Part shown: positions 10,338 through 42,683 of the stretch, piece after piece
Layout: each line of letters opens with the position of its first letter
Numbering within the stretch: the stretch's first letter is position 1
Source of the DNA: an uncultured Verrucomicrobiota bacterium
GTDB lineage: Bacteria; Verrucomicrobiota; Verrucomicrobiia; Methylacidiphilales; CAMAQI01
Length of the DNA stretch: 64,000 bases
Reading direction: 5' to 3'
NCBI GenBank assembly: GCA_964555235.1
Contig: CAZKRU010000007.1
Coordinates: 10,359 to 74,358 of the forward strand
The notes under the pieces: generated by a model
Told to the model about the DNA's origin: nothing
The model's input: only the letters and a program-made list of their open reading frames with translations
Database searches by the model: none
Program-made: the position numbers and the translations under genes

Positions 10338-10342
10338 TTGTT

Positions 10343-10429
10343 TCTCGCCAAGTCCGCCAAGACGCCAGGAAACCCTCTTTTGTTTTTAGATCGAATGCAA
10401 TCCTTCGCGACTTGGCGGACTTCGCGAGA
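10343..10429. repeat. REP-like palindrome between convergent genes (possible bidirectional terminator)
   Basis: TCTCGCCAAGTCCGCCAAGACGCCAGGA pairs imperfectly with TCCTTCGCGACTTGGCGGACTTCGCGAGA. Confidence 0.65.
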
Positions 10430-10454
10430 GACAGCGAATTTCCCTAGCAGTCGT

Positions 10455-12740: not shown

Positions 12741-12780
12741 CGCAAAACCCTAACCAGCTAAGAGAGAGAACCAAGATCTT

Positions 12781-12927
12781 TCTCGCGCAGAAAACCCTTC
12801 TGAAAGAAAAAACTCCCCTGGCCGGAGGCCCGATTGGTTTGGTGCGAGGGCGAAGGGGGGCACAACCGCCGTGCTCGCAGAGGGCAAAAAAAGTTTTCTC
12901 AGCGGACTCGGCGATCTCTGCGCGAAA
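12781..12927. repeat. Intergenic REP-like inverted repeat
   Basis: TCTCGCGCAGA ... TCTGCGCGAAA ends flanking a GC-rich interior. Confidence 0.4.
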
Positions 12928-12937
12928 ATAATCAGTA

Positions 12938-13951: not shown

Positions 13952-14035
13952 AGGAATGGCACTATAGCCCAAGATTGAAAAAATGCTAGTCAATGATTTG
14001 AATGCGCCAAATGGGAGGCAATTTCCAGTCAATCT

Positions 14036-14063
14036 ATTTTATATGACATATACTATAGGTCAT
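14036..14063 (-). other. Left junction (attL): dif-like site with XerD arm and spacer identical to the right copy but a degenerate XerC arm
   Basis: Minus strand ATGACCTATAG-TATATG-TCATATAAAAT; 14034-14052 is identical to 42682-42700. Confidence 0.8.
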
Positions 14064-14141
14064 ACAGTAGTCCCCGAAACCCGCTTTTATATTTATTTGA
14101 AATTACACGATTTGCAAGATGAAGTTTAAAAATTCTTAAAC

Positions 14142-14160
14142 ATAGTATATTACTATTATA
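14142..14160 (-). promoter_or_regulatory. Leftward TATAAT (-10-like) overlapping palindromic operator ATAGTA-TAT-TACTAT
   Basis: Minus-strand TATAAT at 14160-14155; operator 14142-14156 in the AT-rich left end of the island; no clear -35. Confidence 0.45.
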
Positions 14161-14289
14161 GGCGTTCCTCAATTAAATTTTCTAAATTTATTTTCAGCAT
14201 CTACCAATGAAAACATTCAATCGCAAGAATGCAATTAGAATGTAACCACTACTACTATACTATGATAGTATTTTGTCGCTTGCGTGGTC

Positions 14290-14814
14290 TTACAGGGTAA
14301 AGGTATGGGTTTTGTGCTCGTCGCCGTAAATCATCATGAAGTCGGTATCGACGCCTTTCAAGGGAAACCTCAAGGAACAGGCTCTAACGCTAATAGGATT
14401 TAACGGGCAGCGATCGAGGTAATTCCAAGGAGCATAATCGAAGCGGATCACTGAGCGATGCTGGAAGTACATTCCCTTGTGAAAGGTCTTCTTGGTGCGA
14501 TAACCGTATTTTTCCGGGTTCTGTCCAAAGCGCCTTTTGTGGAACTCGATGTCGATACAAAGGTCGGTAACGATTTTCTTGTACCGGGACTCATAAGGCT
14601 GAATGAGATACCGGTGAAGCTGTGGAGAAATATAGCATTGCTCGGCCACATGGAAATATTCGCAAATAAAGGAGATGTCCACGAAGTCTTTTAGGAGGTG
14701 GACGGTTTTATCCGACTTACCGATATTCTCGTGAACAAATGCATTTTCGTTCTGGGGAGGCAAATCCGAGTTTGAATTGCTCTTGGGAAAGAAGGATTTG
14801 ATGAAGTCTTTCAT
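14290..14814 (-). CDS. Hypothetical protein, last gene of the parA operon
   Basis: 174-aa ORF translationally coupled (ATGA overlap) to the AAA ATPase. Confidence 0.65.
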   Translation of the reverse strand: MKDFIKSFFPKSNSNSDLPPQNENAFVHENIGKSDKTVHLLKDFVDISFICEYFHVAEQCYISPQLHRYLIQPYESRYKKIVTDLCIDIEFHKRRFGQNPEKYGYRTKKTFHKGMYFQHRSVIRFDYAPWNYLDRCPLNPISVRACSLRFPLKGVDTDFMMIYGDEHKTHTFTL

Positions 14815-15719
14815 GGGATGATCTGGAATTTGAGGTTTTCGTGCGAGTATTCGAGTTTGCCGCTGTGGTGCTGTTTGGAGAGGATCCCGTCAGCAATCGC
14901 TTTGCGGATGTGAAATTGAATGACGTTACGGAGATTTCTGGCTCCGTATTTGTCATCATAGCCCAAGTCCAGAAGCCGGTTGAGAGCGACAGCGGAGGCC
15001 GTGATCTCAAAACCCTGCTCTTCACGCAAGCGTCTAATTTCTTTATCAACCATCAGGGCGCAAATACGGCGTTGGTCTTCAAGGGTAAGCTTGTTATAGA
15101 CAATCATGTTCCTGAATCGGCGAATGAATTCGGGTCGGAACTCTCTGGCGACTTGTTGCTGAACATAGTCGCGGATCCGAGAAAAAGGAACGTAGTGGCT
15201 ATCCACGATTTTCGCGGAGCCGATATTGGAGGTCATGATGAGGTAGAAATTCCTCAAATCGATCGTTTTACCATCCCCAACCGTGATCCGTCTCTCGTCG
15301 TAGATCTGGAGAAATAGATCTCGAATGTCTGGATGAGCCTTTTCTATTTCGTCGAATAGGATTACGCCTTTCGTGGCATTGCCTAAACTGCGGCCCAGTC
15401 GGCCAATGTTCCCCGTATGATCCCCGATGAAGTTTTTGATCGAGTCTTGGTGTTTGAATTCTGACATATCAAACGGGTAATAGCACTCAGAGTCAAATAG
15501 GACTGCGGCGATTGCCTTTGAGGTTTCGGTTTTTCCGACTCCGGTAGGCCCAAGAAAGAAGAAGCATCCTTTCGGCTCCTCGGACGAGGTAAGATTGAGC
15601 TCCCCTTGAATAATGACTTGAGCGACCTCATGAATAGCATCGTCTTGACCGATGACCCTAGCTCTGAGTTTTGCCTCAAAGGAGTTGATGCGATCGATGA
15701 ATTCAGGCTCAAGCTTCAT
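14811..15719 (-). CDS. Stand-alone ClpA/ClpB D2-type AAA+ ATPase
   Basis: RVIGQDDAI, FLGPTGVGKTE (Walker A), DMSEF, ILFDEIEKAHP (Walker B), FRPEF, GARNLR; no N-domain or D1. Confidence 0.88.
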   Translation of the reverse strand: MKLEPEFIDRINSFEAKLRARVIGQDDAIHEVAQVIIQGELNLTSSEEPKGCFFFLGPTGVGKTETSKAIAAVLFDSECYYPFDMSEFKHQDSIKNFIGDHTGNIGRLGRSLGNATKGVILFDEIEKAHPDIRDLFLQIYDERRITVGDGKTIDLRNFYLIMTSNIGSAKIVDSHYVPFSRIRDYVQQQVAREFRPEFIRRFRNMIVYNKLTLEDQRRICALMVDKEIRRLREEQGFEITASAVALNRLLDLGYDDKYGARNLRNVIQFHIRKAIADGILSKQHHSGKLEYSHENLKFQIIP

Positions 15720-16050
15720 TTGTGCTTTCAGTGGATAGGTTTTTTTTCTTGAATCGTGCACGTCGCCGGTCGTTCTGAATGACTTTATCGGAATCCTCCT
15801 TTAGGGTGGAATCGACCGCACACCGATTGATGCAAAGATTGATGAGCTGCGATTGGTTGAGCTTTATCCCAAAGTTAAGGAGCGTTGCATCGATCTCCTT
15901 GAGTTTCTGTAGCTGCTCCTCCTGTGCGACAACTTGGAGCCGCGCAGAGGTTGCGCTGGTTAAATAGGTTTGAGTCCTGGGGTGGTTTGAGGGCGCATAG
16001 AACCGAATCACTTTTTTGAGACCGGCAACGTGTTTTTTATCGAGGGCCAT
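15709..16050 (-). CDS. Small basic protein downstream of parA (candidate centromere-binding or regulatory partner)
   Basis: 113 aa; RBS AAAGGA; position next to parA; LNQSQLINLCI helix is compatible with a ribbon-helix-helix fold (inference). Confidence 0.55.
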   Translation of the reverse strand: MALDKKHVAGLKKVIRFYAPSNHPRTQTYLTSATSARLQVVAQEEQLQKLKEIDATLLNFGIKLNQSQLINLCINRCAVDSTLKEDSDKVIQNDRRRARFKKKNLSTESTNEA

Positions 16051-16093
16051 GATCTATCCTTTCGTAGTAAGTTAGTAATATACTATTACAGTA

Positions 16094-16654
16094 TTATTTA
16101 ATGGCAAGCGTCAAGATCTCCATGACGATCGACTGGAGTTCAATCTTTCCGGATTTGGAGAGCGAGCTCCAGCCTTGCATTACGGAATGCTGATACTCCT
16201 GCTTGCGGTGGAGTTTGGATTCAAGAGCCGAGACCCCCAAGCTCTCCGCGAATTCATCGATGTTGTTGGAAAGGATTGTCCCCTTCTCCACTTGGTTGAA
16301 GATGAGGTAGAGCGGGGTTTGAACCATGTCACGGATCCTCCGGATCGTCGCACTGGAGGTTTTCAAATCTGCTGGGGAAGGAGACGTGACAAGGAACAGG
16401 TGAGTCGCTTGATGAACCGCTTTGATCCAAGCCGCACTGTCGAAATCCGGAGGGGTATCAACAAATGCGATGTCGGAATCATTTTGAGGCTGATCTGGAG
16501 CAACTTGCTGCCACCACTCGGTTGCAGTCTGCTGCTTGTCGCAATCGATAATTCTGACTTGTTTCTTGAGGTGGTGCAGCGCGAGAGCGCACCCGACCGT
16601 GAGGGTAGTTTTTCCGACGCCGCCTTTGCCGTTGACGAATGTAATGTACTTCAT
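16094..16654 (-). CDS. parA: ParA-family ATPase (short, type Ib-like)
   Basis: KGGVGKTT deviant Walker A, IIDCDKQ, FVDTPP. Confidence 0.9.
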   Translation of the reverse strand: MKYITFVNGKGGVGKTTLTVGCALALHHLKKQVRIIDCDKQQTATEWWQQVAPDQPQNDSDIAFVDTPPDFDSAAWIKAVHQATHLFLVTSPSPADLKTSSATIRRIRDMVQTPLYLIFNQVEKGTILSNNIDEFAESLGVSALESKLHRKQEYQHSVMQGWSSLSKSGKIELQSIVMEILTLAIK

Positions 16655-16725
16655 TTGAGACGAATCCTTTTGGTTAAGAGTTAAAGAGGCGATTCGTTCT
16701 CGCAAAAGCTTACTAAGATAGTAGG

Positions 16726-16740
16726 ATAGTATATTACTAT
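16726..16740. promoter_or_regulatory. Palindromic operator ATAGTATATTACTAT between divergent parA and ORF16783
   Basis: The same 13-bp core occurs at 14143 and 17303 and, inverted, at 16073. Confidence 0.65.
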
Positions 16741-16782
16741 ACTATTCTAGTCAAGTGAAAATTCTCTTGCGATTATTTCGAT

Positions 16783-17277: not shown

Positions 17278-17383
17278 CGAGATTCCAGACAGCTAGATAA
17301 GATAGTATATTACTATAAATAGGTGTTAAACGAAAATAATGAAGGTCTTGAACTCGTTCACATGATGCGTCTATTCTTGGGTA

Positions 17384-17886: not shown

Positions 17887-19452
17887 CTATTCCTTTTCCG
17901 ACAAATCCTCAGCCGTCTCACAATCCGCATCATCAGGCCTCGGTGCAGTGAACCCGGTGGGAAGAAGCTTGGTTTTGCTGTATCCTTTTTCGCAGTGAAT
18001 CATGTAGCACTCAAATCGCTTGAGTCTCCGTAAAAGCTCATGGTGCACTTTTGGCTTCCACGCTTCCTGTTTCGAGGTCGACCGCTTACCGCCAGACCAA
18101 GAGACAGAGTGATTCCAGTCTTCTTTTTCTCCCAGTCGCTCAGAGGCTGATTTCGCCCCGTAGGTGTTGGCAGCCTTGAAAACCAGTTCGTTTGAGAGAT
18201 TGAGGAGGGTTTCCTCTTTGGCGTCATCGCCGATGCGATTCTTGATCGAGGATTCACCTTGGGTAAGGAAAAGAGCTGTGGCGTAGAATTCACGAATCAT
18301 GGCAAGGGCCTTATAAATGGCCATTCCGTCTTTATTCTTGGTCATGATATTCTGGGCCTCGTCTGCAACGTAGATAATCAGGTTCTTTCGCACCCGGACT
18401 TTTTGCGGGAGGGAGGCACGAGAGAGGGCGTGTTCTGCATACTGATTGAAGATGAGAGTCTCGATCGCTGCCTTGGATCTGGAAAACTCCGGAGGAACCG
18501 AGACGCAAAGAATTTTACCGTCATCGATCATTTCGATCCGAGCATTTGGATTCTCCGATGAAAAAACCTCGACGAGTGCGGGATGGGTGTAGGGCTCAAG
18601 CGAATTAGTGATGGTAGTGAGATGTCCGCCACGTTCTTCTTCTGGGATGCCGATAAACTTTTCGGAAAAATGGTTGAAGATGTCGTTGGCTTGGTTTCCG
18701 TCGTAAACGTTATTTTCTTTAAAAAGCCGGTCGGCATGAATCGCCAGTTGATTCAGTTTCTTCTCAAGAGTCGAAAGTGAGGTGAGGGTGCGGAAGAGTT
18801 TGTCTAAGGTCGGAGCCTCATTGAGAATCCGGAAGAGATTGATTCCATTTTTGATGTGGAGGTAGGCCATGCTCTTGAAGTGATCCGAGGATCCACCAGA
18901 ACCGATTCGACCTTGAGATTCGGCAGTATCGATAATTGCGGCCGCATAAGTTTCAGCAAGGATGATCGGATTCCCGATGAGGTTCATAAAGAATTCCGGT
19001 CGAAAGGCCGGATTGTGAACGGTGCGAGTACGAACGACGAGCGGCTTGCTCATCATTTTGAAATGCTTGGCCATCGCGAGAATCATTTCTTGCTCGTGAC
19101 CTTTGGAACAGGTGAAGACGCATCCAAAATCCGGACACCGCTGAAAGAGCTGCGGTAATATCGTACAAAGCCCCACAGCGGTCTTTCCGGAGCCGGTCTT
19201 TCCGGTAACGAGCCATCCACGAATAAAGTCTTCGAGTGTCCAGCTCATGTTCCCAATGACGCAGACGACTTGTTTAAGTCGGTCCGTCTGGGTGACGGTT
19301 CCATCTCCGAAGCACCCCCATGCAAACCAAGTGGCCATGATGATGAAGAGATACGGCACAAAGAAGAACATCCCTCCGAAAACGTCCCAGAGGACGAAGG
19401 CTGCCGCGCCAAAGACGAAAGCGAAAAGTCCTGAGAAAAGCTTCTGTTTCAT
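17887..19452 (-). CDS. virD4: Type IV coupling protein (VirD4/TraG-like)
   Basis: Two N-terminal TM helices, GWLVTGKTGSGKT Walker A, YVADEAQN Walker B, LFLTQG...NLSNELVF. Confidence 0.85.
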   Translation of the reverse strand: MKQKLFSGLFAFVFGAAAFVLWDVFGGMFFFVPYLFIIMATWFAWGCFGDGTVTQTDRLKQVVCVIGNMSWTLEDFIRGWLVTGKTGSGKTAVGLCTILPQLFQRCPDFGCVFTCSKGHEQEMILAMAKHFKMMSKPLVVRTRTVHNPAFRPEFFMNLIGNPIILAETYAAAIIDTAESQGRIGSGGSSDHFKSMAYLHIKNGINLFRILNEAPTLDKLFRTLTSLSTLEKKLNQLAIHADRLFKENNVYDGNQANDIFNHFSEKFIGIPEEERGGHLTTITNSLEPYTHPALVEVFSSENPNARIEMIDDGKILCVSVPPEFSRSKAAIETLIFNQYAEHALSRASLPQKVRVRKNLIIYVADEAQNIMTKNKDGMAIYKALAMIREFYATALFLTQGESSIKNRIGDDAKEETLLNLSNELVFKAANTYGAKSASERLGEKEDWNHSVSWSGGKRSTSKQEAWKPKVHHELLRRLKRFECYMIHCEKGYSKTKLLPTGFTAPRPDDADCETAEDLSEKE

Positions 19453-19466
19453 ATAATACTATCTTA

Positions 19467-20213
19467 CTACTTCACCTTGAAGATGACCGCATGACCGCCC
19501 GGAATTTCTGCTTTCCCGGTGAATGGCTGCACGTTGCTCATATTGAGAAAATACTGGTCGTTTTGAGGATCCGGAACGACGGTAATCGTGACGCCCAGTT
19601 TTGAGAGTTCTTTGAGAGTAGCAACGTTGAGCTTGGTGACTCCCTCCATTTGACTATAGCGGGTTTCGTAGCGGTCCCGTGCCAGATTGACCGCCTTGTC
19701 ATAACTGAGGGTGAAGAGGATCCCGAATCCAAGGAAGCAGGCGCAAGCGGCCGTGCACCACGGAATCCATCGCCGCTGTTTGGATGTACGAAGGAGGATT
19801 GCCTCAGTCTTGCCCAGGAGTGGAGCGATCGATTCTTGAATTTGGTTGATGAGTCGGTTGGTTTCCTGTGAGGCCTGCTCCTGTGCTGATTGGATCTTCT
19901 CGGCTTCGCTGTGCACGGCCGTTGCGGTGCTTTTGATGATCTCGACGGTCTTACTCAGCACTTCGCTACTGGCCTTCACGTATTCAAGGCAATCGGTCGG
20001 ATTGAAGTCTTGAGGGAGTTGAGCCGGCGCGGATGCCTCCGGGGTGCCATCGAGTTGTTCGAACCACGTTTGAAACGATTGCCGGAGGATTTCAAAGAGA
20101 GGGTGATCTTTCGAGGGAAGCTCATGCCCATCGATCGCATCCTCGATCATTTGACGGAGTTCTGAGGGGAGTGATCCCAAAAAGAGATCCCATTCGGTTG
20201 GAGTGTCGTTCAT
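19467..20213 (-). CDS. Hypothetical coiled-coil protein with one TM helix (mobilisation accessory)
   Basis: 248-aa ORF between relaxase and coupling protein. Confidence 0.65.
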   Translation of the reverse strand: MNDTPTEWDLFLGSLPSELRQMIEDAIDGHELPSKDHPLFEILRQSFQTWFEQLDGTPEASAPAQLPQDFNPTDCLEYVKASSEVLSKTVEIIKSTATAVHSEAEKIQSAQEQASQETNRLINQIQESIAPLLGKTEAILLRTSKQRRWIPWCTAACACFLGFGILFTLSYDKAVNLARDRYETRYSQMEGVTKLNVATLKELSKLGVTITVVPDPQNDQYFLNMSNVQPFTGKAEIPGGHAVIFKVK

Positions 20214-20235
20214 ATAAATGAGTATGTTACTACGA

Positions 20236-20529
20236 TTAGAGTTTGATGAGGGTCGGCTTCACGGTTTTCCGGAGGTAGTAATAGAGTTTCTTATCTCCGT
20301 CTGGTCTAGAAATGGGACATACCCATCCTTCGAGGTGAACTACCGTGCAGGGTTCAGTTTTGTTTCCTTCTTCATCCTCCGTTGAGTCGATGAAATAAAA
20401 CCCCTGAATCTTCTCTGGAGGAAAGACGAAGAAATCAATTTCGACGTGCTTTGAAGGAAGGGAAGATTCGCTCTGTTCCGCTGAGGTTTTGACTCGCGGC
20501 GTGATTTTCGTGTTCGGGTCGGGTTCCAT
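20236..20529 (-). CDS. Hypothetical protein
   Basis: 97-aa ORF overlapping the relaxase 3' end and filling the gap to the next gene. Confidence 0.45.
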   Translation of the reverse strand: MEPDPNTKITPRVKTSAEQSESSLPSKHVEIDFFVFPPEKIQGFYFIDSTEDEEGNKTEPCTVVHLEGWVCPISRPDGDKKLYYYLRKTVKPTLIKL

Positions 20530-21664
20530 GGGCTTGTTTCCTGATTTGTTGATGAACTACGGGGTTGATCGGTTGAAATTGGTTTTGCGACGTGCGAACG
20601 TCTTTGATCTGGCGTTTGAGCTCCTTGATCTTCCGGAAGCGTTCCATCTGTTTTTGTCGGATCGAGTCGAGGGTGATTTGTTGGGCGGCCTTCGAGACGG
20701 CTTTTTCGAGAGAGGTGGGGCGATAGCCCATAAACCTCATGGCCTGCTTCTTGATGGAGTTTTTGACCCGGATCCGGCGTTCGGATTTTATCTCGGTCTC
20801 GATGGCTTTGATTTGCTGATATTTGGCGAGAATGACCTTTTGCTGGGACTTGAATTCATTCCAGCGCGGGGTTCCGGGGCCGATGGTAGGAGAGGGCCGG
20901 ATCCGCGGTGGACGTGGAGCAAAAACAAACCGGTGACCTTGGGCGTGTTTCTGAACCCGCTCTTGGACATGAGGATCCTCGATCTTCTTTTCCCAGAAGC
21001 GTAGTTGGGTGGCGAGGGATTCTTTAAGGAAGTTGAGTTTGTCCTCTTGGCCGTTATCAATCTTGTTTTTGAGCTGACCGGAGAAAGAGACGAACTGGCC
21101 GCCTTGGGTTCTGGGGTGAACAAAGACGTGGGCATGGAGGTTATCGGTGTCGTGATGAAAGCCATAGGTGTACCCCAGAGAGTCGCCTTTGTGGAATTGA
21201 TCGGTAAAGTTCCGCATGGTCCGTTTCATGCACTGGTGAAGGACAGCCTGCGGGTTGATTCCCTTGGCAACGAGTTTGTCGTGGAATTCCTTCGACATCG
21301 AAAAGACGAGCCTGTGGTGATCCTTTTTCGTTTTTGGGAATCGGTTGGAGTGGACTTTCCACGCGCGGAGGATGCGAGTTCGTTTTTCCTTGTTGGATAA
21401 ACTCTCGAAATGATCGAACCCGCCTCCGGATCTGCGGGAGGCGGCCGTCCGGATGAAACCGGCAGCATGGAGCTCTCCGAATTCTTCTTTGGAGAGATAG
21501 TCGATCCCATCTCCGGGTGAAATCTTTGGTTTGACCTCTTCACCGGCGCGGCGAGCTCTGGCGCGGTCGGCGTAATGTTTGAGGTCGGAACCCTCGATCT
21601 GGTATTCCGGATCGAAACCGATACCGGAATACTTCATGACGTGGACAATGATGCCATGACTCAT
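20435..21664 (-). CDS. HUH relaxase (MOBP-like)
   Basis: HHRLVFSMS (motif II-like), GFHHDTDNLHAHVFVH (HUH motif III), N-terminal tyrosines (KHYADR, IDYLSK), basic C-terminus; start uncertain (21664 or 21685). Confidence 0.82.
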   Translation of the reverse strand: MSHGIIVHVMKYSGIGFDPEYQIEGSDLKHYADRARARRAGEEVKPKISPGDGIDYLSKEEFGELHAAGFIRTAASRRSGGGFDHFESLSNKEKRTRILRAWKVHSNRFPKTKKDHHRLVFSMSKEFHDKLVAKGINPQAVLHQCMKRTMRNFTDQFHKGDSLGYTYGFHHDTDNLHAHVFVHPRTQGGQFVSFSGQLKNKIDNGQEDKLNFLKESLATQLRFWEKKIEDPHVQERVQKHAQGHRFVFAPRPPRIRPSPTIGPGTPRWNEFKSQQKVILAKYQQIKAIETEIKSERRIRVKNSIKKQAMRFMGYRPTSLEKAVSKAAQQITLDSIRQKQMERFRKIKELKRQIKDVRTSQNQFQPINPVVHQQIRKQAHGTRPEHENHAASQNLSGTERIFPSFKARRN

Positions 21665-21698
21665 GAGAGTTGACCCTCCGCCCATATCGTAGTATGGT

Positions 21699-22043
21699 AT
21701 GAGCATGAGAACAGTGTATCTCGCCGAGAGCGACAATTATCTTTTGGAGTCTCATCGGATAATGGCTGAGCGCATTCAAGCCGACCGTTCACTTTTACGA
21801 TTTCCAAGAAAACAAATCGCAAGATGGCTTGAAAATGATCTTTCGTGGAGTTCAAGACTGGCAACTGAAGAGTGGGTGACTTTACTAAAACCGGAGAATT
21901 TTGAAGAGTTGATTCATGCAATGACACGGGACGACGATGAAGGACAACGCCTTCGTTCGAGCTCTCCTTTTGGCGAGGGCATCCTTTCGCGTGAAGAGAT
22001 CGACGCTCTTTTTGATGAGGCTTATGCATCGGTCCCAAGTTGA
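21699..22043 (+). CDS. Putative antitoxin partner of the DUF6036 protein
   Basis: SHRIMAERI...EEWVTLL...GQRLRSSSPF, typical of genes preceding DUF6036; overlaps the downstream gene. Confidence 0.65.
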   Translation: MSMRTVYLAESDNYLLESHRIMAERIQADRSLLRFPRKQIARWLENDLSWSSRLATEEWVTLLKPENFEELIHAMTRDDDEGQRLRSSSPFGEGILSREEIDALFDEAYASVPS

Positions 22044-23069: not shown

Positions 23070-23486
23070 TCCCAGTAGTGATTTTAAGAATGGTTTTTGC
23101 CGTAGCGTGCCTGACACGCGGAGGCCTGTTTTGGGGAGTCAACGAGCCAAAACGTAAAATGGTGCACAATTTTACTATGCTCTTTACCGAAGAAATGGTG
23201 CACATTGCAGCATTTTGAGGAGGTGGTTTCGGAACTCGAAACCCGAGTCAAGGGAGCCAAAGTAGAGGCTTCCTTGACCAGACCGGAGGCCAGAATGGAG
23301 CCTCCGGGGAGCTTGTCTCTGGCGGCAGAACCGCCAAGGACTGGGTGACCGGATTGCGGCGGAGGCCATGCTTGGGGGGCGGGAGTGGCGGCCGAAATCG
23401 GCCTCCGGAGAGCACCAAACCTTGGACACCCAATCCAAATTCCTGCGACCTTCGGTCGCCTCTTTGAAAAAAATGAGGTCATAAAA
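23070..23486. other. Candidate oriT / single-strand origin region
   Basis: Non-coding gap upstream of the RHH and relaxase genes; palindrome GTAAAATGGTGCACAATTTTAC (23154-23175), direct repeat AAATGGTGCACA (23157, 23193) and several CCGGAGGC/GCCTCCGG inverted repeats. Confidence 0.5.
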
Positions 23487-24860
23487 TCAAGGGTGAAGGG
23501 ATCGGGAGGGTTTGAAAGCATTCGGAATTTGAACCCGACTTGATGGGGTTAGGGGCTCGGGTTTGAATGGGTTCAGATCGGATTTGAGTTCATGCTCAAA
23601 CTGTTTGAGGGTTCTCCAATCGGCCTGAACAAGATCCTCAGTCTGCTTCTGGGAAGGGGAAAAGCCTGCGCTCTGGGCTCTTTCCAAAAGCAGAATGGCC
23701 TTGTGGCGGCGGGCTTCGTTCATCGTCTTTTGCCATTCTGCCTGACGAATTTGTTCATGGGTTTTGTCGGTTGGAGAGATCAACTGGGTCGGTTCGGAGG
23801 CCTTGAGCACCTGACCTTGTGAGGTTCCCCGGTGGTAAAGGTTTCCGGCTTTGGTGATCTCTCCGGATTGTAGGAGCTCGGAAACCAAGGTCGTTTCACG
23901 CAGGGTTTGGATTCGCTCGCGGTCGATCCGGATGAGGTCATGGTTCCAATCTTTGCCCTCCGGAACGAGAATTCTCAGGTCGCCTTGGAACCCCAAGTCT
24001 TTCAAAGTCTTCAAAGCGCGGCTGGTTCCGTTCACTCCCTCCACGTCCGAGTTGAGGGCGAGAACCACATTTTTGCGGCCTTCGGCCGCAAATTGAGCGA
24101 GGTTTTCAGGGAGGCTATTACCTCCTAGCGAGAGAAAACAAGGGGTGTTCGTTTGATCCAGAAGCCCCTTTTGGGGGGCGAGCTGGGCGAGGCTGAGGGC
24201 CTCGATCGGAGACTCGGTGAGAATGAGGGTGTCGGCCGTCTTGGGGTTTCCAAGGTAGAACCAAGCGAAGGTTTTGGATCCCAAAGCCGACTTCATTCCG
24301 GTTTGGTGAAGGGTGGAGCGTGAGCTCAGGCCTCGGATTTCTCCATCCAAGTTCCGGTGCAGAAAGGTTGCATTGGTCAACATCGGGAGGTCTTTGGAGT
24401 GAGTCGCTTTGATAACTTCTGGATCAATTAGGGCAGGGTCAATGCCACGGGTCTGAGTCAAATAGTCGTGGACGTGGCCCCACTTTTCGGGAGCATCGAT
24501 GGCAAGGCGTGCGCGTTGCTCCGGGAAAGATTCACTGGGAGCGGAGGAGGGCGAAGCCGCCTTGGAATGCGCTACTGGGAAAGAAAGAGGGGTTTGGGCG
24601 TTGGTGCCGTGCCGGTCGGCAAGCCAGACGCAGGCCTTTCGGAAGTCGGTTTGATTGAGGTGCATGGCAAGATCGATGGCTCCAAACCCGCCTTTTCGGT
24701 TCTTGTGATCGAACCATTTCTGGCCGGTGACGTTGATCGCGTGGAGGTCATTTTTGAACATGATCGATTGGCCTTGGCGGTCGGAAGCGAACCCTTCGGA
24801 CTCAAGAATTTGGGCAACCGGAATATCCCGGACTTGATCGGCGAGGTTGATGAGAGGCAT
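23487..24860 (-). CDS. DNA primase-like protein (DUF3991 + Toprim)
   Basis: KWFDH...GFGAIDLAMH, YLTQTRGI, LILTESPIEALS, VVLALNSDVEG, GKDWNHDL. Confidence 0.82.
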   Translation of the reverse strand: MPLINLADQVRDIPVAQILESEGFASDRQGQSIMFKNDLHAINVTGQKWFDHKNRKGGFGAIDLAMHLNQTDFRKACVWLADRHGTNAQTPLSFPVAHSKAASPSSAPSESFPEQRARLAIDAPEKWGHVHDYLTQTRGIDPALIDPEVIKATHSKDLPMLTNATFLHRNLDGEIRGLSSRSTLHQTGMKSALGSKTFAWFYLGNPKTADTLILTESPIEALSLAQLAPQKGLLDQTNTPCFLSLGGNSLPENLAQFAAEGRKNVVLALNSDVEGVNGTSRALKTLKDLGFQGDLRILVPEGKDWNHDLIRIDRERIQTLRETTLVSELLQSGEITKAGNLYHRGTSQGQVLKASEPTQLISPTDKTHEQIRQAEWQKTMNEARRHKAILLLERAQSAGFSPSQKQTEDLVQADWRTLKQFEHELKSDLNPFKPEPLTPSSRVQIPNAFKPSRSLHP

Positions 24861-24867
24861 AGCAATC

Positions 24868-26325
24868 TCAGCTATCGACTTGTGATAAACCCTCTTTTGA
24901 AGCGGCAAAAAAGAGAATGTTTCGATCCGGCACGGCGCTGCGGATCTGGGTTTTGAAATTCTCGGAAATGAACTCTGCGGCGAAGCGCGAGGAGTTGATG
25001 ATGAGGGCTTCGTCCGGATCCCGAAGACCCAAGGGGCTGAGGTCCTCAAACCAACGCTTCACGGTTGCTTCGGAGCTGAGGGATTGCATTTGCCGTTTGA
25101 GTGCGTCAAAAATCACTCGAGCGGTTACAGCGGATCCGGGCTTGAGGTGGGGGAGTTGATTGAGAATGCAGCGATCGACGGGAAGCACTGGAACCGGCGA
25201 AACGGAAGGTTTCGCGGAAGGCTCGGAGGCAACATGTTGGCGCGCGCGGTCGAGAGCCTTTTGCCAAGAGCGGAGCAAGGCGACAAGCGACTGGGGACGG
25301 TAGAGTCGGCGGGTGGGGGATTCGGGGAGCCGATACCATACGGCGATGAGATCGAGATCCGACGGTGAAACGGTTGGCAACGCGTCGAAAAGTTCGAGCT
25401 CCTTGCTCGTCGGGGTAGCGGTCAGGGAACGCCCAAAAACCGCCGAAAGTCGGCTCAAAACCGCTTCTTTTCCCATAGGCAAGAAGTCAGCGGAAAAGCC
25501 GCTTTGAGCGGGTTTTTCCGCCCCCGATGGTGCGACCGGATGGGAGCGACGATTTTCCTCGTCCGTCCGAGGGCCGATAGGCCCGGAGGCGGGGCTTAGT
25601 TTTGCGGCGATAGCCGCCTCGGATTGAAGGGGGGGGGATAAAACAGAATGCGCTTCTGGGAAAGGAAGAGCTTGGGGCAACCCTCCGGCCTCCGGTTCTG
25701 GGCTTGGCGGCACGGGCAAGGGGGTAGGGGGATTTAATGCAGTATCCTCTGCTGTAATCTCTGTTCCTGTGAATGTGCGCATTCCGTCCGATCGAATGGC
25801 CTGATTTGTGCACTCGATAGGGCTGTTTGGTGCGCTCGATAGGGCGAATTTGTGCGATCTGCTGTTGCAAGGGTTTACGACTTTTTTCGAGACTTCTGGG
25901 GATGATGAATGGGATTGGGTTGCGTCTGGACTTGATCCCTCTTCTGGATGGGGGGTCGATCGATAGGGCGGATTTGTGCACTCTGCAACTGCAAGGGTTT
26001 GCAAAAGTTCAGCGAGCTTCTGGTAGTTAATCCGGTAAAAGACAATATGCTTCCATAGATTGCCGTTTGGATTATCGAGTTTTTCTTCAAGAACTCCAAT
26101 TTCGCGAAGCTTCCTTCGAGCGGTTTCCTGCTCGCGCTTGGATAAAACGGTTTCTTCCTCCCATTCAGGAGAAGATTTATAAAACCATCCACCCTCTAGC
26201 GTCGCCCTGCGACTCCAATAAACCGCTTGGGAGAGAAAAACACCTGCTGTCACTGAATTGGCGACTTTTGCAAAGACCCGGTGATAGGCGATAGGGCTAT
26301 CGAGTAGAAAAGCGATGTCGTTCAT
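24868..26325 (-). CDS. Replication initiator (phage replisome-organiser-like wHTH) with C-terminal DnaA domain-I-like module
   Basis: N-terminal SVTAGVFLSQAVYW...GWFYKS..EWEEETVLS..EQETARRKLRE; C-terminal LSSEATVKRWFEDL...SRFAAEFISENF; internal iterons. Confidence 0.78.
   Translation of the reverse strand: MNDIAFLLDSPIAYHRVFAKVANSVTAGVFLSQAVYWSRRATLEGGWFYKSSPEWEEETVLSKREQETARRKLREIGVLEEKLDNPNGNLWKHIVFYRINYQKLAELLQTLAVAECTNPPYRSTPHPEEGSSPDATQSHSSSPEVSKKVVNPCNSRSHKFALSSAPNSPIECTNQAIRSDGMRTFTGTEITAEDTALNPPTPLPVPPSPEPEAGGLPQALPFPEAHSVLSPPLQSEAAIAAKLSPASGPIGPRTDEENRRSHPVAPSGAEKPAQSGFSADFLPMGKEAVLSRLSAVFGRSLTATPTSKELELFDALPTVSPSDLDLIAVWYRLPESPTRRLYRPQSLVALLRSWQKALDRARQHVASEPSAKPSVSPVPVLPVDRCILNQLPHLKPGSAVTARVIFDALKRQMQSLSSEATVKRWFEDLSPLGLRDPDEALIINSSRFAAEFISENFKTQIRSAVPDRNILFFAASKEGLSQVDS
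25792..26000. repeat. 22-bp iterons inside the rep gene (putative oriV)
   Basis: TCGAATGGCCTGATTTGTGCAC (25792), TCGATAGGGCTGTTTGGTGCGC (25814), TCGATAGGGCGAATTTGTGCGA (25836), TCGATAGGGCGGATTTGTGCAC (25960). Confidence 0.75.
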
Positions 26326-26338
26326 AGTGTTTTGTGGG

Positions 26339-27301
26339 TTACAGTTTTAGGCTCATCGTTCTTTGGTTTTTGGGGGATAAATCGACGCGCTCGACCGGAT
26401 GAACGGCATCAGGCTTCAACATGTTTGAGGGGTTTTGATCGAGGCTCCTGACAATGAAAAAATCCGCTGCCTTCTGCGCTTCGCTGGAGGCCTGTACGAT
26501 GAGTTTAGGGTCTTTGGAGAGAGTAGTGCGCCAATTCTCAATGTAGGCGGCAGAATCGGGGATAACGGCATCCGTTTGGATCCCCGCCGTGGCACTAAGG
26601 AAACAGGATCCAAGCTCTGCAATGAGCTCCTCTTTGGCGTAGGCGGGTGATCCGAAATCTCCGGAGAGAGGTCGATCAAGGCGAGATGGATGCCCCGAGG
26701 CATGGGTGAGCTCGTGGAACGTAGTATGATAGTAGGATTCAGGTGACTTGAACGATTCGCGGCAGGGTATGTGAATCTCATCCGAAGAAGGATGGTAGCA
26801 TGCGCCGGTGAAACCGTGTTTGATTGGAACGCCGGAGTTTTGAATCAGTTGATCGCCTTTCTCGATGGGGGAAAGAAACGATTGACCTGGCTGAATCTGA
26901 AACTTCTCAGGGATTTTGACTCCTTGGGTTTGAGCCAGATTGAAAACGTTGGCATACCGCAAAAATGGAATCTGTTTTTCTTTCCCATCAGAATCGAGAA
27001 TCGGCTTGGAGCTGCTATCTGTCGCTGGTAGCAGTTTGTAGAAAAGGACACGGTGGGCCTTTTCACCTTTCTTAATTGTACCTCCGAGGTCTGAGGCCTG
27101 TTTGTAGGTCATCCAAAGGGAGGACTGATACTCTGCAACAAGATTGAGATTGAAGAAGTTGATTCCTCGGTAGATTTCTCCGGAGACAATGTTCCGAGCA
27201 AATCCGTCGCGCTGTGCGTTCCATCCCTTTTTCCAAGGGACAACGCCACGATCGAGCTCTTGGATGATGCGATTGGTGATGGATTGATAGACTTCGTTCA
27301 T
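26339..27301 (-). CDS. ardC: ArdC-family antirestriction protein (ssDNA-binding + zincin domain)
   Basis: VYQSITNRII..L..GVVPWKKGW, YRGIN, WMTYKQA, VFNLAQ, HELTHASGHPSRL, YAKEELIAELG. Confidence 0.92.
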   Translation of the reverse strand: MNEVYQSITNRIIQELDRGVVPWKKGWNAQRDGFARNIVSGEIYRGINFFNLNLVAEYQSSLWMTYKQASDLGGTIKKGEKAHRVLFYKLLPATDSSSKPILDSDGKEKQIPFLRYANVFNLAQTQGVKIPEKFQIQPGQSFLSPIEKGDQLIQNSGVPIKHGFTGACYHPSSDEIHIPCRESFKSPESYYHTTFHELTHASGHPSRLDRPLSGDFGSPAYAKEELIAELGSCFLSATAGIQTDAVIPDSAAYIENWRTTLSKDPKLIVQASSEAQKAADFFIVRSLDQNPSNMLKPDAVHPVERVDLSPKNQRTMSLKL

Positions 27302-27501
27302 CGGTCGAGGCGGGTTTCTTGGTGAGCTGAGTGGATCCACGATTCGGCCGTTGGCCGATCAATGGCGAAACGATTTTGAATCTCTGGGCGAATATCGATC
27401 GAGCCAGTGAGGTGTCGATAAAGGCGCGTCTGGGAAAGAGGGAGGTCCCGATTTATCTCTTGAAAAATATAATCATCGAGGAACGATTCGTAGTTAGGCA
27501 T
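27298..27501 (-). CDS. Small hypothetical protein
   Basis: 67 aa; AGGAG RBS; ATGA-coupled to ardC. Confidence 0.55.
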   Translation of the reverse strand: MPNYESFLDDYIFQEINRDLPLSQTRLYRHLTGSIDIRPEIQNRFAIDRPTAESWIHSAHQETRLDR

Positions 27502-28530: not shown

Positions 28531-28556
28531 ATGTTAGTATCTTACTATCTTATGCC

Positions 28557-30647: not shown

Positions 30648-31673
30648 TTATTGGGTTACGGGTTTATTGAGTCCTTGAATGGAGCCTTGAAAACCGCCTC
30701 CAACCGACTTGGCTTTGGAGAGATCAATGGGCTCATCGTTGTAGAAATAAAAATATTTACCTCCGGGCACCCGGACGAAAACGGCTTGTCGTTGCAAATC
30801 CATGATGAGCTGATGGGAGTAGATTTGGCTTGATTGTTCAATGGCTTGCCCTCCTGCTGTTTGAAGGCTGCCCGAGGAGGAGGTAAAGGTGCCAGAACCG
30901 GAGTTGGTCGTGACTTTTTCAGAAATTCCTGAGCCGAATCCCTGAATGGCCTTGGCAAAGACAAGATAGAGGAGCTGATTGTCCTTGTTTTCCATGACTT
31001 TGCCGCGCAGGCCTGCGGTTCCATCGGTGAGTTTGAGATCCGGATCCGCTGAGGCGAGAATTCCATCTTGGAGTTCACGATTGAGAATCTTGCCGCGGAT
31101 GGGGAGCTCCCAACCGGATTCTTTTTCGGGGTAATTACGCCAGACAAAGCGATGTTCGGGAGCGGTGATAATTCTGTCATAGCTGGCGGTACCTGTGGCC
31201 GTTCCGAGGATTTCGGTTCCAGCTTTAATGATGCAAATTCCGTTGTGCCAGTAATCACGAGTCACCAAACCGATGACGGGAGTGGCGAGATTTTTGGATT
31301 CGATTCCGTTGACGAGCTGACATTCAATCAGTCTTCCGGTGGGAGCGTATATATCTCCGACCGGCTCCTCATTTGAGGTAAAGACCTCGATCGGAGGGGG
31401 TGCGCTTTGCTGAGCAGGTGGAGGCTCTGGCTGGTGTTCATACATTTGGGAGCGTTGAGGAGCGGAAACGTCTTCGGTGAAAGTTTCAATTTTGGGGAGA
31501 TTGCTGGGCGCGCTTTCGTCCGCCTGCGCTTTATTGATTTGAGCGATATTCTTTTCGAGCTTCTTTTGATTAACGTGATTGAGGGCAAACGCGACCGCGC
31601 AAATCGCGGCGATCGCCAGAACCGCGTAAAGCTTGTACTCGGAGGAGGATTTTAATTTTTGAATGAAAGTCAT
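30648..31673 (-). CDS. virB10: VirB10/TrbI-like T4SS core protein
   Basis: N-terminal TM helix, Pro-rich linker, YAPTGRLIECQLVNGIES...PVIGLVTRD, GTAGLRG, VRVPGGKYFY. Confidence 0.85.
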   Translation of the reverse strand: MTFIQKLKSSSEYKLYAVLAIAAICAVAFALNHVNQKKLEKNIAQINKAQADESAPSNLPKIETFTEDVSAPQRSQMYEHQPEPPPAQQSAPPPIEVFTSNEEPVGDIYAPTGRLIECQLVNGIESKNLATPVIGLVTRDYWHNGICIIKAGTEILGTATGTASYDRIITAPEHRFVWRNYPEKESGWELPIRGKILNRELQDGILASADPDLKLTDGTAGLRGKVMENKDNQLLYLVFAKAIQGFGSGISEKVTTNSGSGTFTSSSGSLQTAGGQAIEQSSQIYSHQLIMDLQRQAVFVRVPGGKYFYFYNDEPIDLSKAKSVGGGFQGSIQGLNKPVTQ

Positions 31674-33234: not shown

Positions 33235-33293
33235 GAGAAGCCTCTGGATTGTGGGTTGGAAAACGTTGTTTCATATCATAGTATGGTAGTATG

Positions 33294-34547
33294 TTACTGT
33301 AATTCTGGGGTGCCCCCTCCGAGTTGTTTCATGACATCCCGTCGACGAGAGGCCATCTCGCTCGGAGAAGGGAGCGCGCGGGGCTCAAAGCGTGGAATTC
33401 CGCCAGAAGCAAATCCTCTTTGATCCATGATCTCTGGATCCAAGGAGGAAGAGGGAACCTCAGGCCCCATGCCCAAGGAACCGCCAGAGCCGCCCCCACT
33501 GAGGGGAGATGGAGGGCCGCCAGCGCGTGGCATTCGTGTCACTTTTCCGGTACTGGAAGAGGGAGCAGGAAGCCCCTTGGCGGAGGAGCTGGAGCCGAAG
33601 TTCCAATCTCCAGAATCGCTGGAATCGGTGCTTCCGCCTCCAGTGGGGCTCCCCCCTCCGCCCCCCAGTTTACCCAAAAGACCTTTGAGGCTTTCAGCGA
33701 GCTTACCCATGGAATTAGCAAGGGGAGCGACTGATGCGGCCATGAAAGCAGCACTGCCGACCGCTCCGAAAGCCCCACTTCCTCCGGAAAGAATCATCCC
33801 AATGGAAATTGGAACGGTGAGATAAAGAAGATTGATGAAGATGGCGAGAAGCAAAAAAGCTCCAAGCATTTTAGCCAAAATAGCAGGCGCGAGTGCTGGA
33901 GCGACCACTGCAACTCCAAGTGCCACTCCAGCCGCAGTAAGGACTACTGTGCCAATTTTCGCGATAAAAATATCGGCGACAGCGGTTCCAATCGGCCAGA
34001 GAAGGACTCCAAAAGTGGTCATCCACGTTTTAATGGCGATGCTCTTGGTTGCGGGAATCTGAAACATGCAAATGGTCAACGGTGCAAACGCAATCATCAC
34101 CGAAAGAGCGTATGGCTGGATCCATTTGAGTATCCAATACCCGACGAAACCTAAAGCTTGAAGACAGTTCAAGATGACAACGCTCAAACCATTTTTGAGA
34201 TCTTCAAGCCATGTGCCTTCTTCGACTTCCGGAATTGGTTTTCCCCATGCCGTTTTAAAAGTATCAATTTCTGATTCAATGGTTTTACCCAGTTCTTCAA
34301 AGGATTTTTGCCCGTTGATAACCATCGACGGATAACCAGCCAAAAGAGCGCAGCAAAATGCGGCCGTGGCGATTCCGAAAGTCATGTTTTTGATGTCGTC
34401 TTGGTGGGCGAAAAAAGAATAGGCCAAACCGCACGAAGCAAAGATAAAGGCAAACGGAAGAAGTGCGTCATAGACGACCATGGCCATTTTGTATTCATGG
34501 CCGCCTGTCATTGCCAAAATCGGAAAAGTGGTTAGACTAAGAGGCAT
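33294..34547 (-). CDS. VirB6/TrbL-like polytopic membrane protein (start uncertain)
   Basis: Several TM helices, FAPLTICMFQIP...LLWPIG, Gly/Ser-rich C-terminal tail. Confidence 0.75.
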   Translation of the reverse strand: MPLSLTTFPILAMTGGHEYKMAMVVYDALLPFAFIFASCGLAYSFFAHQDDIKNMTFGIATAAFCCALLAGYPSMVINGQKSFEELGKTIESEIDTFKTAWGKPIPEVEEGTWLEDLKNGLSVVILNCLQALGFVGYWILKWIQPYALSVMIAFAPLTICMFQIPATKSIAIKTWMTTFGVLLWPIGTAVADIFIAKIGTVVLTAAGVALGVAVVAPALAPAILAKMLGAFLLLAIFINLLYLTVPISIGMILSGGSGAFGAVGSAAFMAASVAPLANSMGKLAESLKGLLGKLGGGGGSPTGGGSTDSSDSGDWNFGSSSSAKGLPAPSSSTGKVTRMPRAGGPPSPLSGGGSGGSLGMGPEVPSSSLDPEIMDQRGFASGGIPRFEPRALPSPSEMASRRRDVMKQLGGGTPELQ

Positions 34548-34737
34548 GAGCAAAATCCTTGCGACGTTGATGGTTGGCGTGCTTTTGGGTGGAGGCACCG
34601 TGTACGTTTTCAAAGTTCAAGCGGACGAAAAAAGGCGAAAGACAGCTTCCGATGCTTGGCAACAAGGCGAGCGCGAAAAAGCTGAAATGTACAAAAAAAT
34701 CGATCAAATGACTAAGGATGGGAGTATTATGAAGTAA
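34546..34737 (+). CDS. Antisense 63-aa membrane peptide homologous to the VirB5 C-terminus (candidate entry exclusion, TrbK-like)
   Basis: MSKILATLMVGVLLGGGTVYVF TM helix + WQQGEREKAEMYKKIDQMTKDG, versus WAQGEKEKTEMYKKIDKLTKEG in the neighbouring gene; AAGAGG upstream. Confidence 0.7.
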   Translation: MSKILATLMVGVLLGGGTVYVFKVQADEKRRKTASDAWQQGEREKAEMYKKIDQMTKDGSIMK

Positions 34738-34739
34738 TC

Positions 34740-35534
34740 TCATTTGTAGATTCCCTCTTTAGTGAGTTTATCGATTTTTTTGTACATTTCCGTCTTTTCC
34801 TTTTCTCCCTGAGCCCAAACTTTGGCCGCTTGCTTTCCTTGCTTGGCCTTTTGGGTTTCGTAGAGAGTTTTGGTGGCTTGAAGTTTTTGGTAAGCGTCAT
34901 CAGCTCGTTTTTTAGCGTCAGCGAGCTTTGCTTGAAGGGCGGCAAGGTCGGCCTGTTTTTGGCGTTGTTCGGCTTCGTCTGCCGGTGTTTTTGAGGTCAC
35001 GCGATCAATTTCAGTTTGGATTTCCTTTGCGTCCTGTTCGGATTTTTCCATGACATCGGCAAAGTTTTGGAAAGAATTTTCGAGGGTGTTGAGGGCCGTC
35101 ATCGGATCGTAATTGGAAAAGTCGATATTGCCGGATTGGAGATCCTCCAAGGAGGCCATGTTAATCGGCGAACCCATCACCTTCTGAGTGGAAGAGGCGA
35201 GGGAAGAGGCCTGTCCTGCGGTTTTGCTGATTTCTGTGAAGGTTTTACCGAGCTGAGAAGTGGAGGAACTCCCCAAGAGTTTAGAATTCATGAGGGAAGC
35301 GATCTTGGTAGGGTCACCTGCGACTTGTTTGGCGGTTTCAAGGAGCTTCACGGCTTCTTGGGCTTTCGTGAGCTGCTCCTGAACGTTTTTGAGCTGTTCA
35401 GTCCATTTTGCGAGAGTTTCAGTATGCTGGATTTGTTGACCTGTTATTTGCGCTGACTGCAACGCTTGAGATGCGTCGCCCTGGGCGAAGACTGCTACTG
35501 GGAAAAGAATGAGAATGAGGTATAAAGATTTCAT
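34740..35534 (-). CDS. VirB5/TrbJ-like protein
   Basis: Signal peptide (AVFAQ), LAKWTEQLKNVQEQL coiled coils, located upstream of the VirB6-like gene. Confidence 0.7.
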   Translation of the reverse strand: MKSLYLILILFPVAVFAQGDASQALQSAQITGQQIQHTETLAKWTEQLKNVQEQLTKAQEAVKLLETAKQVAGDPTKIASLMNSKLLGSSSTSQLGKTFTEISKTAGQASSLASSTQKVMGSPINMASLEDLQSGNIDFSNYDPMTALNTLENSFQNFADVMEKSEQDAKEIQTEIDRVTSKTPADEAEQRQKQADLAALQAKLADAKKRADDAYQKLQATKTLYETQKAKQGKQAAKVWAQGEKEKTEMYKKIDKLTKEGIYK

Positions 35535-41589: not shown

Positions 41590-41912
41590 TTGGGTACTTC
41601 CTGTTGGGAAAAAGGATTGGATTGAGTTTTGGGCTTCTCATATTCCCAGTCTCTTTTCATCAAGGACTCGAAGAAGTCGATGTCATTTGCCGCTGGTTTG
41701 TCGTGGCGCAGGAGAAAAATCCAAGCCAGTACCGGCACCATCAGGAGCGAAGAACAAACCAAGGCCATCATGACCGAGGACTTGATCCAAACCGCAAGAA
41801 AAATTCCTAACGAGGCAAGTCCAGCAATCACAATGATCTGGATGTTGACGAAATCAACGCCCTTGAACTTTCCTTCGGAGTCGTCCTGATAGTAGCTCGG
41901 AATGCGGCTCAT
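41586..41912 (-). CDS. VirB3-like membrane protein
   Basis: Two TM helices, ATGA-coupled to virB4; DDSEGKF.G and HDKP motifs. Confidence 0.65.
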   Translation of the reverse strand: MSRIPSYYQDDSEGKFKGVDFVNIQIIVIAGLASLGIFLAVWIKSSVMMALVCSSLLMVPVLAWIFLLRHDKPAANDIDFFESLMKRDWEYEKPKTQSNPFSQQEVPK

Positions 41913-42653: not shown

Positions 42654-42683
42654 GAGATTTTTCTCTCTTGGGTATCAGAGGCT

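Follow-up and report, generated by a model that had tools for sequence, protein, structure and literature searches.

The 28.6-kb conjugative element that we find in the dif site of an uncultured Verrucomicrobiota bacterium carries its first transfer genes at one end and outward promoter-like sites at the other, so that excision as a circle would join them. The layout needed by a circularisation switch is thus present, and it is kept in two relatives. We consider it probable, at about 0.6, that the leading block of transfer genes (the head block) is on only if the host Xer enzymes excise the element as a circle. Because later genes carry operators of their own, this predicted switch would govern the head block and not all of the conjugation genes. 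An earlier reading, made from the sequence alone (the sequence-only reading), had proposed that the transfer genes as a whole are on in the circle and largely off when integrated; the geometry behind this proposal is real and is kept in the relatives G004 and G072, but it applies to the head block only. Coordinates refer to the window, i.e., the whole 64,000-nucleotide stretch of DNA that was analysed, and whole-genome motif searches covered a genome of 4.1 Mb.

A 19-bp direct repeat (14034-14052 and 42682-42700) is the one long stretch at which the two ends match exactly, and bounds an element of 28,648 bp with a GC content of 48%, compared to 50% for the genome. The right copy falls within a complete 28-bp site of 11-6-11 layout (attR, 42684-42711, minus strand; XerD arm 42684-42694, core 42695-42700, XerC arm 42701-42711), which we take to be the chromosomal dif from its likeness to the dif consensus, by which the arms are also named. 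The left copy (14034-14052) consists of two extra bases, the XerD arm and the 6-bp core, and forms part of attL (14036-14063, minus strand), where the XerD arm (14036-14046) and the core (14047-14052) are identical to those of dif (11/11 and 6/6) and the element-derived arm (14053-14063) matches the host XerC arm at 4/11 positions. The core with the XerD arm occurs just twice in the genome at 0 mismatches, and the dif 28-mer is unique up to 6 mismatches. Among the 25 largest contigs, only this one shows an interior flip of GC skew, four others differing in one end tile, and its cumulative G-C skew peaks at window position 42150. The octamers GGGNAGGG, which we take to be the KOPS motif, flank dif in the inward direction (8/8 forward on the left, 5/5 reverse on the right, none opposing) and elsewhere favour the G-rich strand by 376 to 89. 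A position of dif near a skew shift is described in the accessible text of PMC3025954. Across the class, a degenerate dif pattern is found in one copy each in 123/401 genomes, with 0 control matches, and a close pattern gives a single match in 8/41 relatives; in four near-complete relatives, skew around dif gave a weak, noisy signal and was left out as support. The attR that the sequence-only reading had placed beside the first gene is, given the single-copy class-wide site and the skew and octamer flip, identified as the chromosomal dif. The ends of the element are dif and a partial dif copy, unlike an ordinary att pair. A tRNA as the integration target was ruled out, as the window holds 0 tRNA genes; Rfam matches were likewise 0. 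About 10 of the 123 dif matches lie less than 1 kb from a contig start, so that in this class assemblies may be broken at dif by further elements. Left of the element, short repeated intergenic elements (10339-10433 and 12779-12928) have many variant copies among the read contigs.

Between the att sites lies the feature set of an ICE, namely a VirB4-like ATPase (38986-41589, minus strand, as are all genes given in this paragraph; TIGR02746 at E 2e-25 and TIGR00929 at E 6e-19, both below cut-off), a type IV coupling protein (17887-19452; PF02534) and a MobA/VirD2-like relaxase (20435-21736, likely ATG 21661; a weak PF03432 match at E 0.003, with an HxH motif). A VirB10/TrbI-like protein (30648-31673; PF03743), an ArdC anti-restriction protein (26339-27340; PF08401, PF18818), a Toprim primase-like protein (23487-25049; PF13155) and a putative replication initiator (24868-26325; PF11638 at its C-terminus) are also encoded, while the labels VirB2, B3, B5, B6, B8 and B9 follow gene position. 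The initiator gene contains 22-bp-spaced repeats (25789-25983; 25789-26000 when taken more widely) that are possible iterons, and the excised element may replicate as a plasmid. Towards the left end follow a ParA-family ATPase (16094-16705, likely ATG 16654; PF01656, with NF041546 below cut-off), a 113-aa, parG-like putative ParA partner so named from its position after parA (15709-16050), a ClpB-like single AAA+ ATPase (14811-15761; PF07724, PF10431), which is found in all four dif elements and in the sister element discussed below, and the last gene, ORF174 (14290-14814; 174 aa, no family), which faces attL with no terminator-like site after it. The single-domain ClpB-like ATPase is common beside T4SS loci (L003, L021-L039), and at many non-dif loci it is found directly upstream of the pilin-like gene. 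A non-coding stretch (23092-23219) resembles, at 72-77%, loci of contigs C81 and C1 that neighbour other relaxase genes, and is a candidate transfer origin. Between the virB5-like and virB6-like genes (34637-34837), an 85-nt inverted repeat with a strong RNA fold (z -5.5) resembles an inverted copy of the end of the upstream gene; as a conserved feature this long hairpin was rejected, being absent from three relatives.

No recombinase was found in the element by profile scans of its ORFs, and of the 12 tyrosine-recombinase (PF00589) matches in the genome, none lies on this contig. The host XerD scores over the TIGR02225 cut-off, the XerC-like protein has TIGR02224 as its best match, under cut-off, and FtsK is present; these host enzymes would integrate and excise the element. 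Three features of an IMEX are found here, i.e., the chromosomal dif as integration site, a full dif on one side with a dif-like copy sharing the common core on the other, and no recombinase of its own in a host with xerC and xerD genes. The arm pattern of GGI and TLC-phi, with an intact XerC and a degenerate XerD arm, is not found, as the XerC arm is the degenerate one here (the arms being named by the dif consensus). Nor are the features of the Tn916 family, as the element has no integrase and its site is dif.

The first gene does start at 42653, about 30 bp inside attR, as the sequence-only reading had stated, and the ORF (42390-42653, minus strand, 87 aa; ORF87) was confirmed. Its ATG is 28 bp from the 19-bp repeat and 30 bp from the XerD arm, and by eye there is no alternative start codon ahead of the predicted strand. 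It is followed by a pilin-like (VirB2-like) membrane protein (42073-42393; labelled by position and hydrophobicity), a VirB3-like membrane protein (41586-41912; labelled by position and kept before virB4 in many loci) and VirB4, and the head block continues to a VirB6-like gene (42653 to 33294). The promoter scan gave no minus-strand site of at least 9/12 between 39754 and 42760. As the same scan is also blank in the 240-bp leader of the internal head block of the sister element, this blank at attR should be considered weak evidence. Further inside, consensus promoter sites are found at 37173 and 36264, with one more within virB4. On the host side, a 101-aa ORF facing dif (42813-43118, minus strand; 94% copy on contig C5) is a possible source of read-through when the element is integrated, with no terminator-like site between it and dif in the terminator scan, and a terminator-like hairpin just upstream of it (43154-43171, minus strand; a consensus match only) would stop host transcription from further right. 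The 343-bp cassette outside dif (42811-43153) is 86% identical to C5:42251-42593, and its 101-aa product belongs to no known family.

ORF87 is predicted to be RHH-like. Its structure model has a strand (23-32) followed by two helices (33-43 and 48-85), and in the homodimer model, which scored 0.57 against 0.00 for the best control, with contacts agreeing at 89% and a pLDDT of 71-72, strand 25-31 of both copies lies in the interface. It should be noted that 20 of 30 solved homodimers attain this mark, as does 1 of 23 monomers, and that a resemblance to solved dimers may lie behind it. The Atlas leads, at 0.92, are RHH_1 (on 13% of a cluster) and MetJ; there was no Pfam match and nothing clear by Foldseek, VIA-align or PDB sequence search, and a homologue search returned only ORF87 itself.

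The left end (14053-14289), which had been described as AT-rich and non-coding, is indeed so, with a GC content of 31% and no sizeable ATG-started ORF in six frames. Promoter calls here refer to consensus hexamer matching (-35 and -10, out of 12) and not to mapped starts. Two outward sites are found on the minus strand: TAGAAA-18-TATAAT (14155-14184; 10/12), the predicted start of which falls under the operator, and TTGAGG-17-TATACT (14144-14172; 9/12, a consensus match only), the -10 of which lies inside the operator. The overlap of the minus-strand TATAAT (14160-14155) with the operator, as claimed earlier, holds, the shared base being 14155 of the palindrome 14143-14155. Between 13900 and 14500 there are four promoter-like sites, all on the minus strand, compared to 1.9 expected on both strands. 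As a signal by itself, the TATAAT hexamer on which the earlier claim relied is at chance level: it arises on the minus strand in 39% of 2000 dinucleotide shuffles (P 0.39). A site of at least 10/12 at the left end has a P of about 0.09-0.12 (12% of 2000 shuffles), and among genome tiles as rich in AT, 2/51 reach this score on any one strand. TATAAT alone thus carries little weight, and the hexamers are individually weak.

The operator at the left end, in contrast, is reached in only 0.1% of shuffles and is element-specific. TAGTA-N3-TACTA has five exact copies in the genome, all within the element, and at up to 1 mismatch there are 14 copies inside the element versus 8 in the rest of the 4.1 Mb. 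An exact copy (14143-14155) and a copy with 1 mismatch (14250-14262) lie at the left end. The others include a pair with a -10 (TTGCCA-16-TAGTAT; 16065-16085) 15-23 bp before the 113-aa gene, an array between parA and a divergent 164-aa gene (16719-16744), single operators 69 bp before a 155-aa plus-strand gene (17303-17315), just before the coupling-protein ATG (19457-19469), 7 bp before a 248-aa gene (ORF248; 20220-20232) and before a 336-aa gene (ORF336; 28535-28547), and a pair with an ATTACA-17-TATGAT site before the virB8-like gene (33279-33299), which is the first point of internal control past the head block. In terms of placement, 11 of the 14 sit 5-78 bp before a gene start (the starts of parA and ORF336 being our choice in this count), one is inside ardC, and the two left-end copies are orphans, being the sole intergenic copies with no downstream gene in the integrated form. 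The single long tra operon of the sequence-only reading is not upheld, as operators of their own precede the virB8-like, ORF336, ORF248, coupling-protein, parA and parG-like genes. The head block is the sole block with no operator, and none is found before ORF87. The operators at 19457, 20220 and 28535 end just 5-7 bp before the start codon, such that transcripts would be nearly leaderless if the -10 lies inside them. The operator arrays have an 8-bp spacing, which is typical of RHH binders. As the operator binder, the 113-aa ParA partner, a candidate RHH repressor, is as likely as ORF87; it has look-alikes at 16-26% in G004 and G063 and no family match, and its monomer model is of low confidence and uninformative.

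Put together, these parts suggest a plasmid-like, recombinase-less conjugative element in dif, the attachment site of which is likely contained in the leader of the first transfer block. On integration, the promoter and operator would come to lie at the left end and the genes at the right end, and the circle would rebuild the order promoter, operator, attP, ORF87, pilin, VirB3 and VirB4. The exact and the 1-mismatch operator would then lie 138 and 245 bp, respectively, before the ORF87 ATG. RNA polymerase would start near 14148, cross attP and read ORF87 and the pilin-like, VirB3-like and VirB4 genes behind a leader of about 143 nt. The earlier statement that excision puts the promoter directly upstream of 42653 stands in that the two would be joined, but the gap from the -10 to the ATG is 150 bp. 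An RHH protein of the element, either the 113-aa ParA partner or ORF87, would bind the operators and temper the left-end and the six or so internal promoters. In the integrated form, the promoter-poor head block would yield no pilus or VirB4, even if downstream blocks were transcribed. As VirB4 and the pilin are essential for T4SS transfer, silencing the head block would block conjugation. The degenerate XerC arm likely keeps excision rare, and this copy is thus probably off nearly all the time.

To place this layout among relatives, it should be considered that VirB4 matches occur in 78/401 class genomes and that, for 36 distinct VirB4 loci, 0.4-3 kb of upstream DNA each was examined. Four of the 36 have a dif-like site about 1.0-1.3 kb upstream: the present locus and those of G004, G072 and G063. 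The sister element, G007 and G046 have loose matches to the XerC arm upstream of VirB4; these were rejected for their poor XerD arms. VirB4 of the two relatives with the same layout, G004 and G072, is 29-42% identical to that of the element. G004, of the same family and another genus, is syntenic, with 30-51% protein identity, and its ORF87 homologue (35%) starts 31 bp in from the XerD arm. A second contig carries the far end, the link being the common core, an XerD arm of 9/11 and operator arrays that are the same; there, the XerC arm matches at 5/11, and at a distance of 94 bp from the att site there is an outward 9/12 site (P 0.385). The G004 operator is a different array of 8-bp units, located 120-150 bp inside the far end and before the parG-like gene, with 0 matches in 72 kb of host loci. 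Metal-efflux and copper-oxidase-like cargo was recognised by eye between the par genes and the left end of G004 (C162:1-3300 and C43:4300-8400).

G072 belongs to another order (VirB4 at 29%). Starting 39 bp inside the XerD arm, it encodes a 63-aa protein, RHH by eye, and next come pilin-like, VirB3-like and VirB4 genes. The contig with its coupling and ClpB-like genes also bears the far end, which has exact copies of the core and XerD arm, an XerC arm matching at 7/11 and an outward TTGACA-16-TAATAT site (10/12, with a perfect -35) 64 bp from the att site (P 0.041). In G043, of the same genus as G072, one site joins homologues of both G072 flanks, i.e., an empty dif. The degenerate XerC-side arm of G072 (C34:18316-18326; L120, L136) contains TTATCCACA, presumably the DnaA-box consensus, which may be coincidence. 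The element of G063 is complete on one contig (33.9 kb) and in the opposite orientation, with a 23-bp repeat of the XerC arm and core, a 7/11 XerD arm and 144 bp with CATAAT before the pilin-like gene. The far ends of all four dif elements reach 8/12 or more (10 here, 9 in G004, 10 in G072 and 8 in G063), and the 200 bp of host DNA upstream of attR has no site of 8/12 under the strict rule in any of them; with the -35 rule relaxed, a TATAAT site facing into the element does occur on the host side of G004. At empty dif sites (n=11, of which 4 are from one genus; two loci were dropped for short flanks, two had no match, and one duplicate and one spurious locus were left out), the first outward ORF lies 125-1083 bp from the XerD arm. 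As the relatives share descent, these agreements reflect conservation and not independent origins.

The same genome holds a sister conjugative element, split over two contigs (C15:39700-59736 and C5:67700-79202; L045, L046), with a VirB4 at 47%, its own tyrosine integrase beside a tRNA (by eye) and restriction-modification cargo. Its head block lies about 15 kb from the att site behind the 240-bp AT-rich leader, and it has no copy of the operator of the dif element. A search of genome_contigs with a single VirB4 gave no further members, while an alignment search with ORF238 gave at least 2 records, both of Verrucomicrobiota bins and one of them of the same family as this genome. Viral contigs gave no family members and metagenomes none with ORF238; the latter gave five distant VirB4 loci, just one of them with upstream DNA, which had no dif-like site. 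A 401-genome phylum sample gave three weak partial matches besides this genome, and a duplicated core with XerD arm was found only in this genome among 104 order genomes, by a pattern that misses the arm of G004.

Other explanations of the orphan operators and of the split layout need to be weighed, and they are partly compatible with the switch. The best-placed of them, which we nonetheless regard as unlikely, is that the left-end operators are controls or relics of a lost inward Xer-like gene and that the head block is read in both states, either from a TAAAAT in the XerD arm or by host read-through. In G004, an inward XerD-like gene is flanked by operator arrays at the same end, the end operator being 83 bp before it, with inward promoter-like sites there too. 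This gene (C43:962-1894; L097) is full-length and additional to the xerC and xerD of the G004 host, and its product is 46% identical to XerD and 34% to XerC of the present host. G063 also has an Xer-like gene near this end (C141:6020-6934; L066), and the two left-end operators here, 107 bp apart, could border a deletion. Moreover, TAAAAT (42689-42684) lies 30 bp before the ORF87 ATG. However, the element holds no recombinase remnant (best tblastn E 0.72), the left-end promoter-like sites face outward only, and G072 combines its perfect -35 site, which follows an outward RHH-like gene, with no inward gene there and no recombinase match on its three element contigs. The TAAAAT itself has a -35 of only 1/6 (6/12 in all) and is not conserved in G004 or G072. 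A hybrid promoter across attP (ATGACC-16-TAAAAT; 9/12 with the element arm versus 6/12 with the host arm) was set aside, being absent in both.

Ranking behind this, we consider it improbable that the copy is frozen, i.e., that with a decayed XerC arm and no recombinase the circle never forms, and the split promoter amounts to a permanent off state. Its XerC-arm match is the lowest of the three same-orientation elements (4 here, 5 in G004 and 7 in G072, of 11), and two of the four dif elements, those of G004 and G063, bring their own Xer-family recombinase. In five DNA runs, Logan contigs continue without a break across attL or attR, and one of 51.5 kb spans both ends at a depth of 41, like its flanks; among the Logan contigs listed, none has an attP circle junction or a loose end at attL or attR, noting that contigs drop rare forms and that one of the runs (X1) may be the sample of origin. 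Against this, the long frames of the transfer, relaxase, rep-like and par genes are open, an XerC arm with mismatches is seen again in G004 and G072, pointing to design over decay, and stability behind a modified site is also known from GGI and LME-1 (for LME-1, see the accessible text of PMC9765430). The least probable alternative, a switch by long Tn916-like read-through from a promoter before the 113-aa gene (or parA) via the clpB-like gene and ORF174 across attP, with the 14160 hexamer being incidental, can draw on the Tn916 precedent, on every gene from 16705 to 14290 facing attL with no same-strand terminator-like site between 15191 and attL, and on the last gene facing the att site in G063 and G072 as well, but the exact operator covers the 14160/14149 hexamers as it does four internal promoter-like sites, in G072 a discrete site follows the last gene, and the last gene of G004 faces inward.

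If excision does turn on the head block, a host cell-division recombinase, and not an element integrase cascade, would gate transfer. Integration into dif would both store the element and silence pilus and VirB4 synthesis, and excision would be the on switch with no added regulator. T4SS-bearing IMEXs would be extended to Verrucomicrobiota, and the known attP types would gain one in which the XerD arm is intact and the XerC arm poor. More tentatively, and at somewhat under even odds, there may be a Verrucomicrobiota family of conjugative episomes in which an Xer site in the pilin-VirB4 leader makes host dimer resolution the on/off switch of conjugation, the XerC arm being mostly degenerate, in the reverse of the GGI and TLC-phi pattern, and the XerD-like recombinase of some members acting there. 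Circle-activated promoters and dif-integrated T4SS islands are each known separately, and as the hosts seen are metagenome bins, both surprise and testability are limited. In a literature search in which most subscription papers were beyond reach, we met no dif-integrated conjugative element in Verrucomicrobiota and no circle-activated IMEX promoter.

When compared to known systems, the operators recall the omega regulon of pSM19035, in which an RHH protein acts through one operator with 8-bp-spaced half-sites at many promoters; the element likewise has one operator with 8-bp spacing at many promoters, the binder here being only a candidate. With GGI, as far as the accessible text of PMC5357621 and PMC9226527 describes it, the element shares a T4SS, relaxase and ParA island at dif with one full and one degenerate dif copy, stably integrated, while its T4SS is of a divergent VirB type, unlike that of GGI. 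In these sources, attP of GGI and TLC-phi keeps the XerC arm and has a degraded XerD arm, of which the pattern in this element, G004 and G072 is the reverse, G063 being GGI-like. In the accessible text of PMC8716806, transcripts of the GGI traH and parA operon are readily detected in ordinary strains, and no circle-dependent promoter for GGI was met in the seen parts of these three papers. Supplementary Figure S1B of PMC9226527, which catalogues IMEX sites, bears on how rare a poor XerC arm is. As in cer plasmids, for which the same source, as far as seen, reports few XerC-arm changes, a mismatched XerC arm occurs here together with rep-like and parA genes on one replicon; the differences in cer are confined to a few positions, however, and cer needs accessory proteins. 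The closest functional parallels are in the accessible part of PMC5812530. There, with Celli and Trieu-Cuot 1998 as the work cited, the tec genes of Tn916 are promoterless when integrated and read through after excision, and here, too, integration would leave end-located transfer genes without a promoter, and outward transcription of the opposite end would reach them after excision. Tn916, as described there, uses its own Int and Xis, many AT-rich sites and long tetracycline-controlled transcripts, whereas the element uses a dif site, has no integrase and has a discrete, operator-covered candidate promoter 150 bp away that would serve the head block only. The Pcirc promoter of ICEclc, in the same text, faces outward and is placed before the integrase gene by circularisation, and it resembles the discrete outward promoter-like site here, which would likewise come to precede the gene of the opposite end on circularisation. 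The gene boosted by Pcirc is the integrase gene of a tRNA-Gly element, whereas the target here would be the RHH-pilin-VirB3-VirB4 block of an integrase-less dif element. By this analogy, the element is an Xer/dif element that would work like Tn916 or Pcirc.
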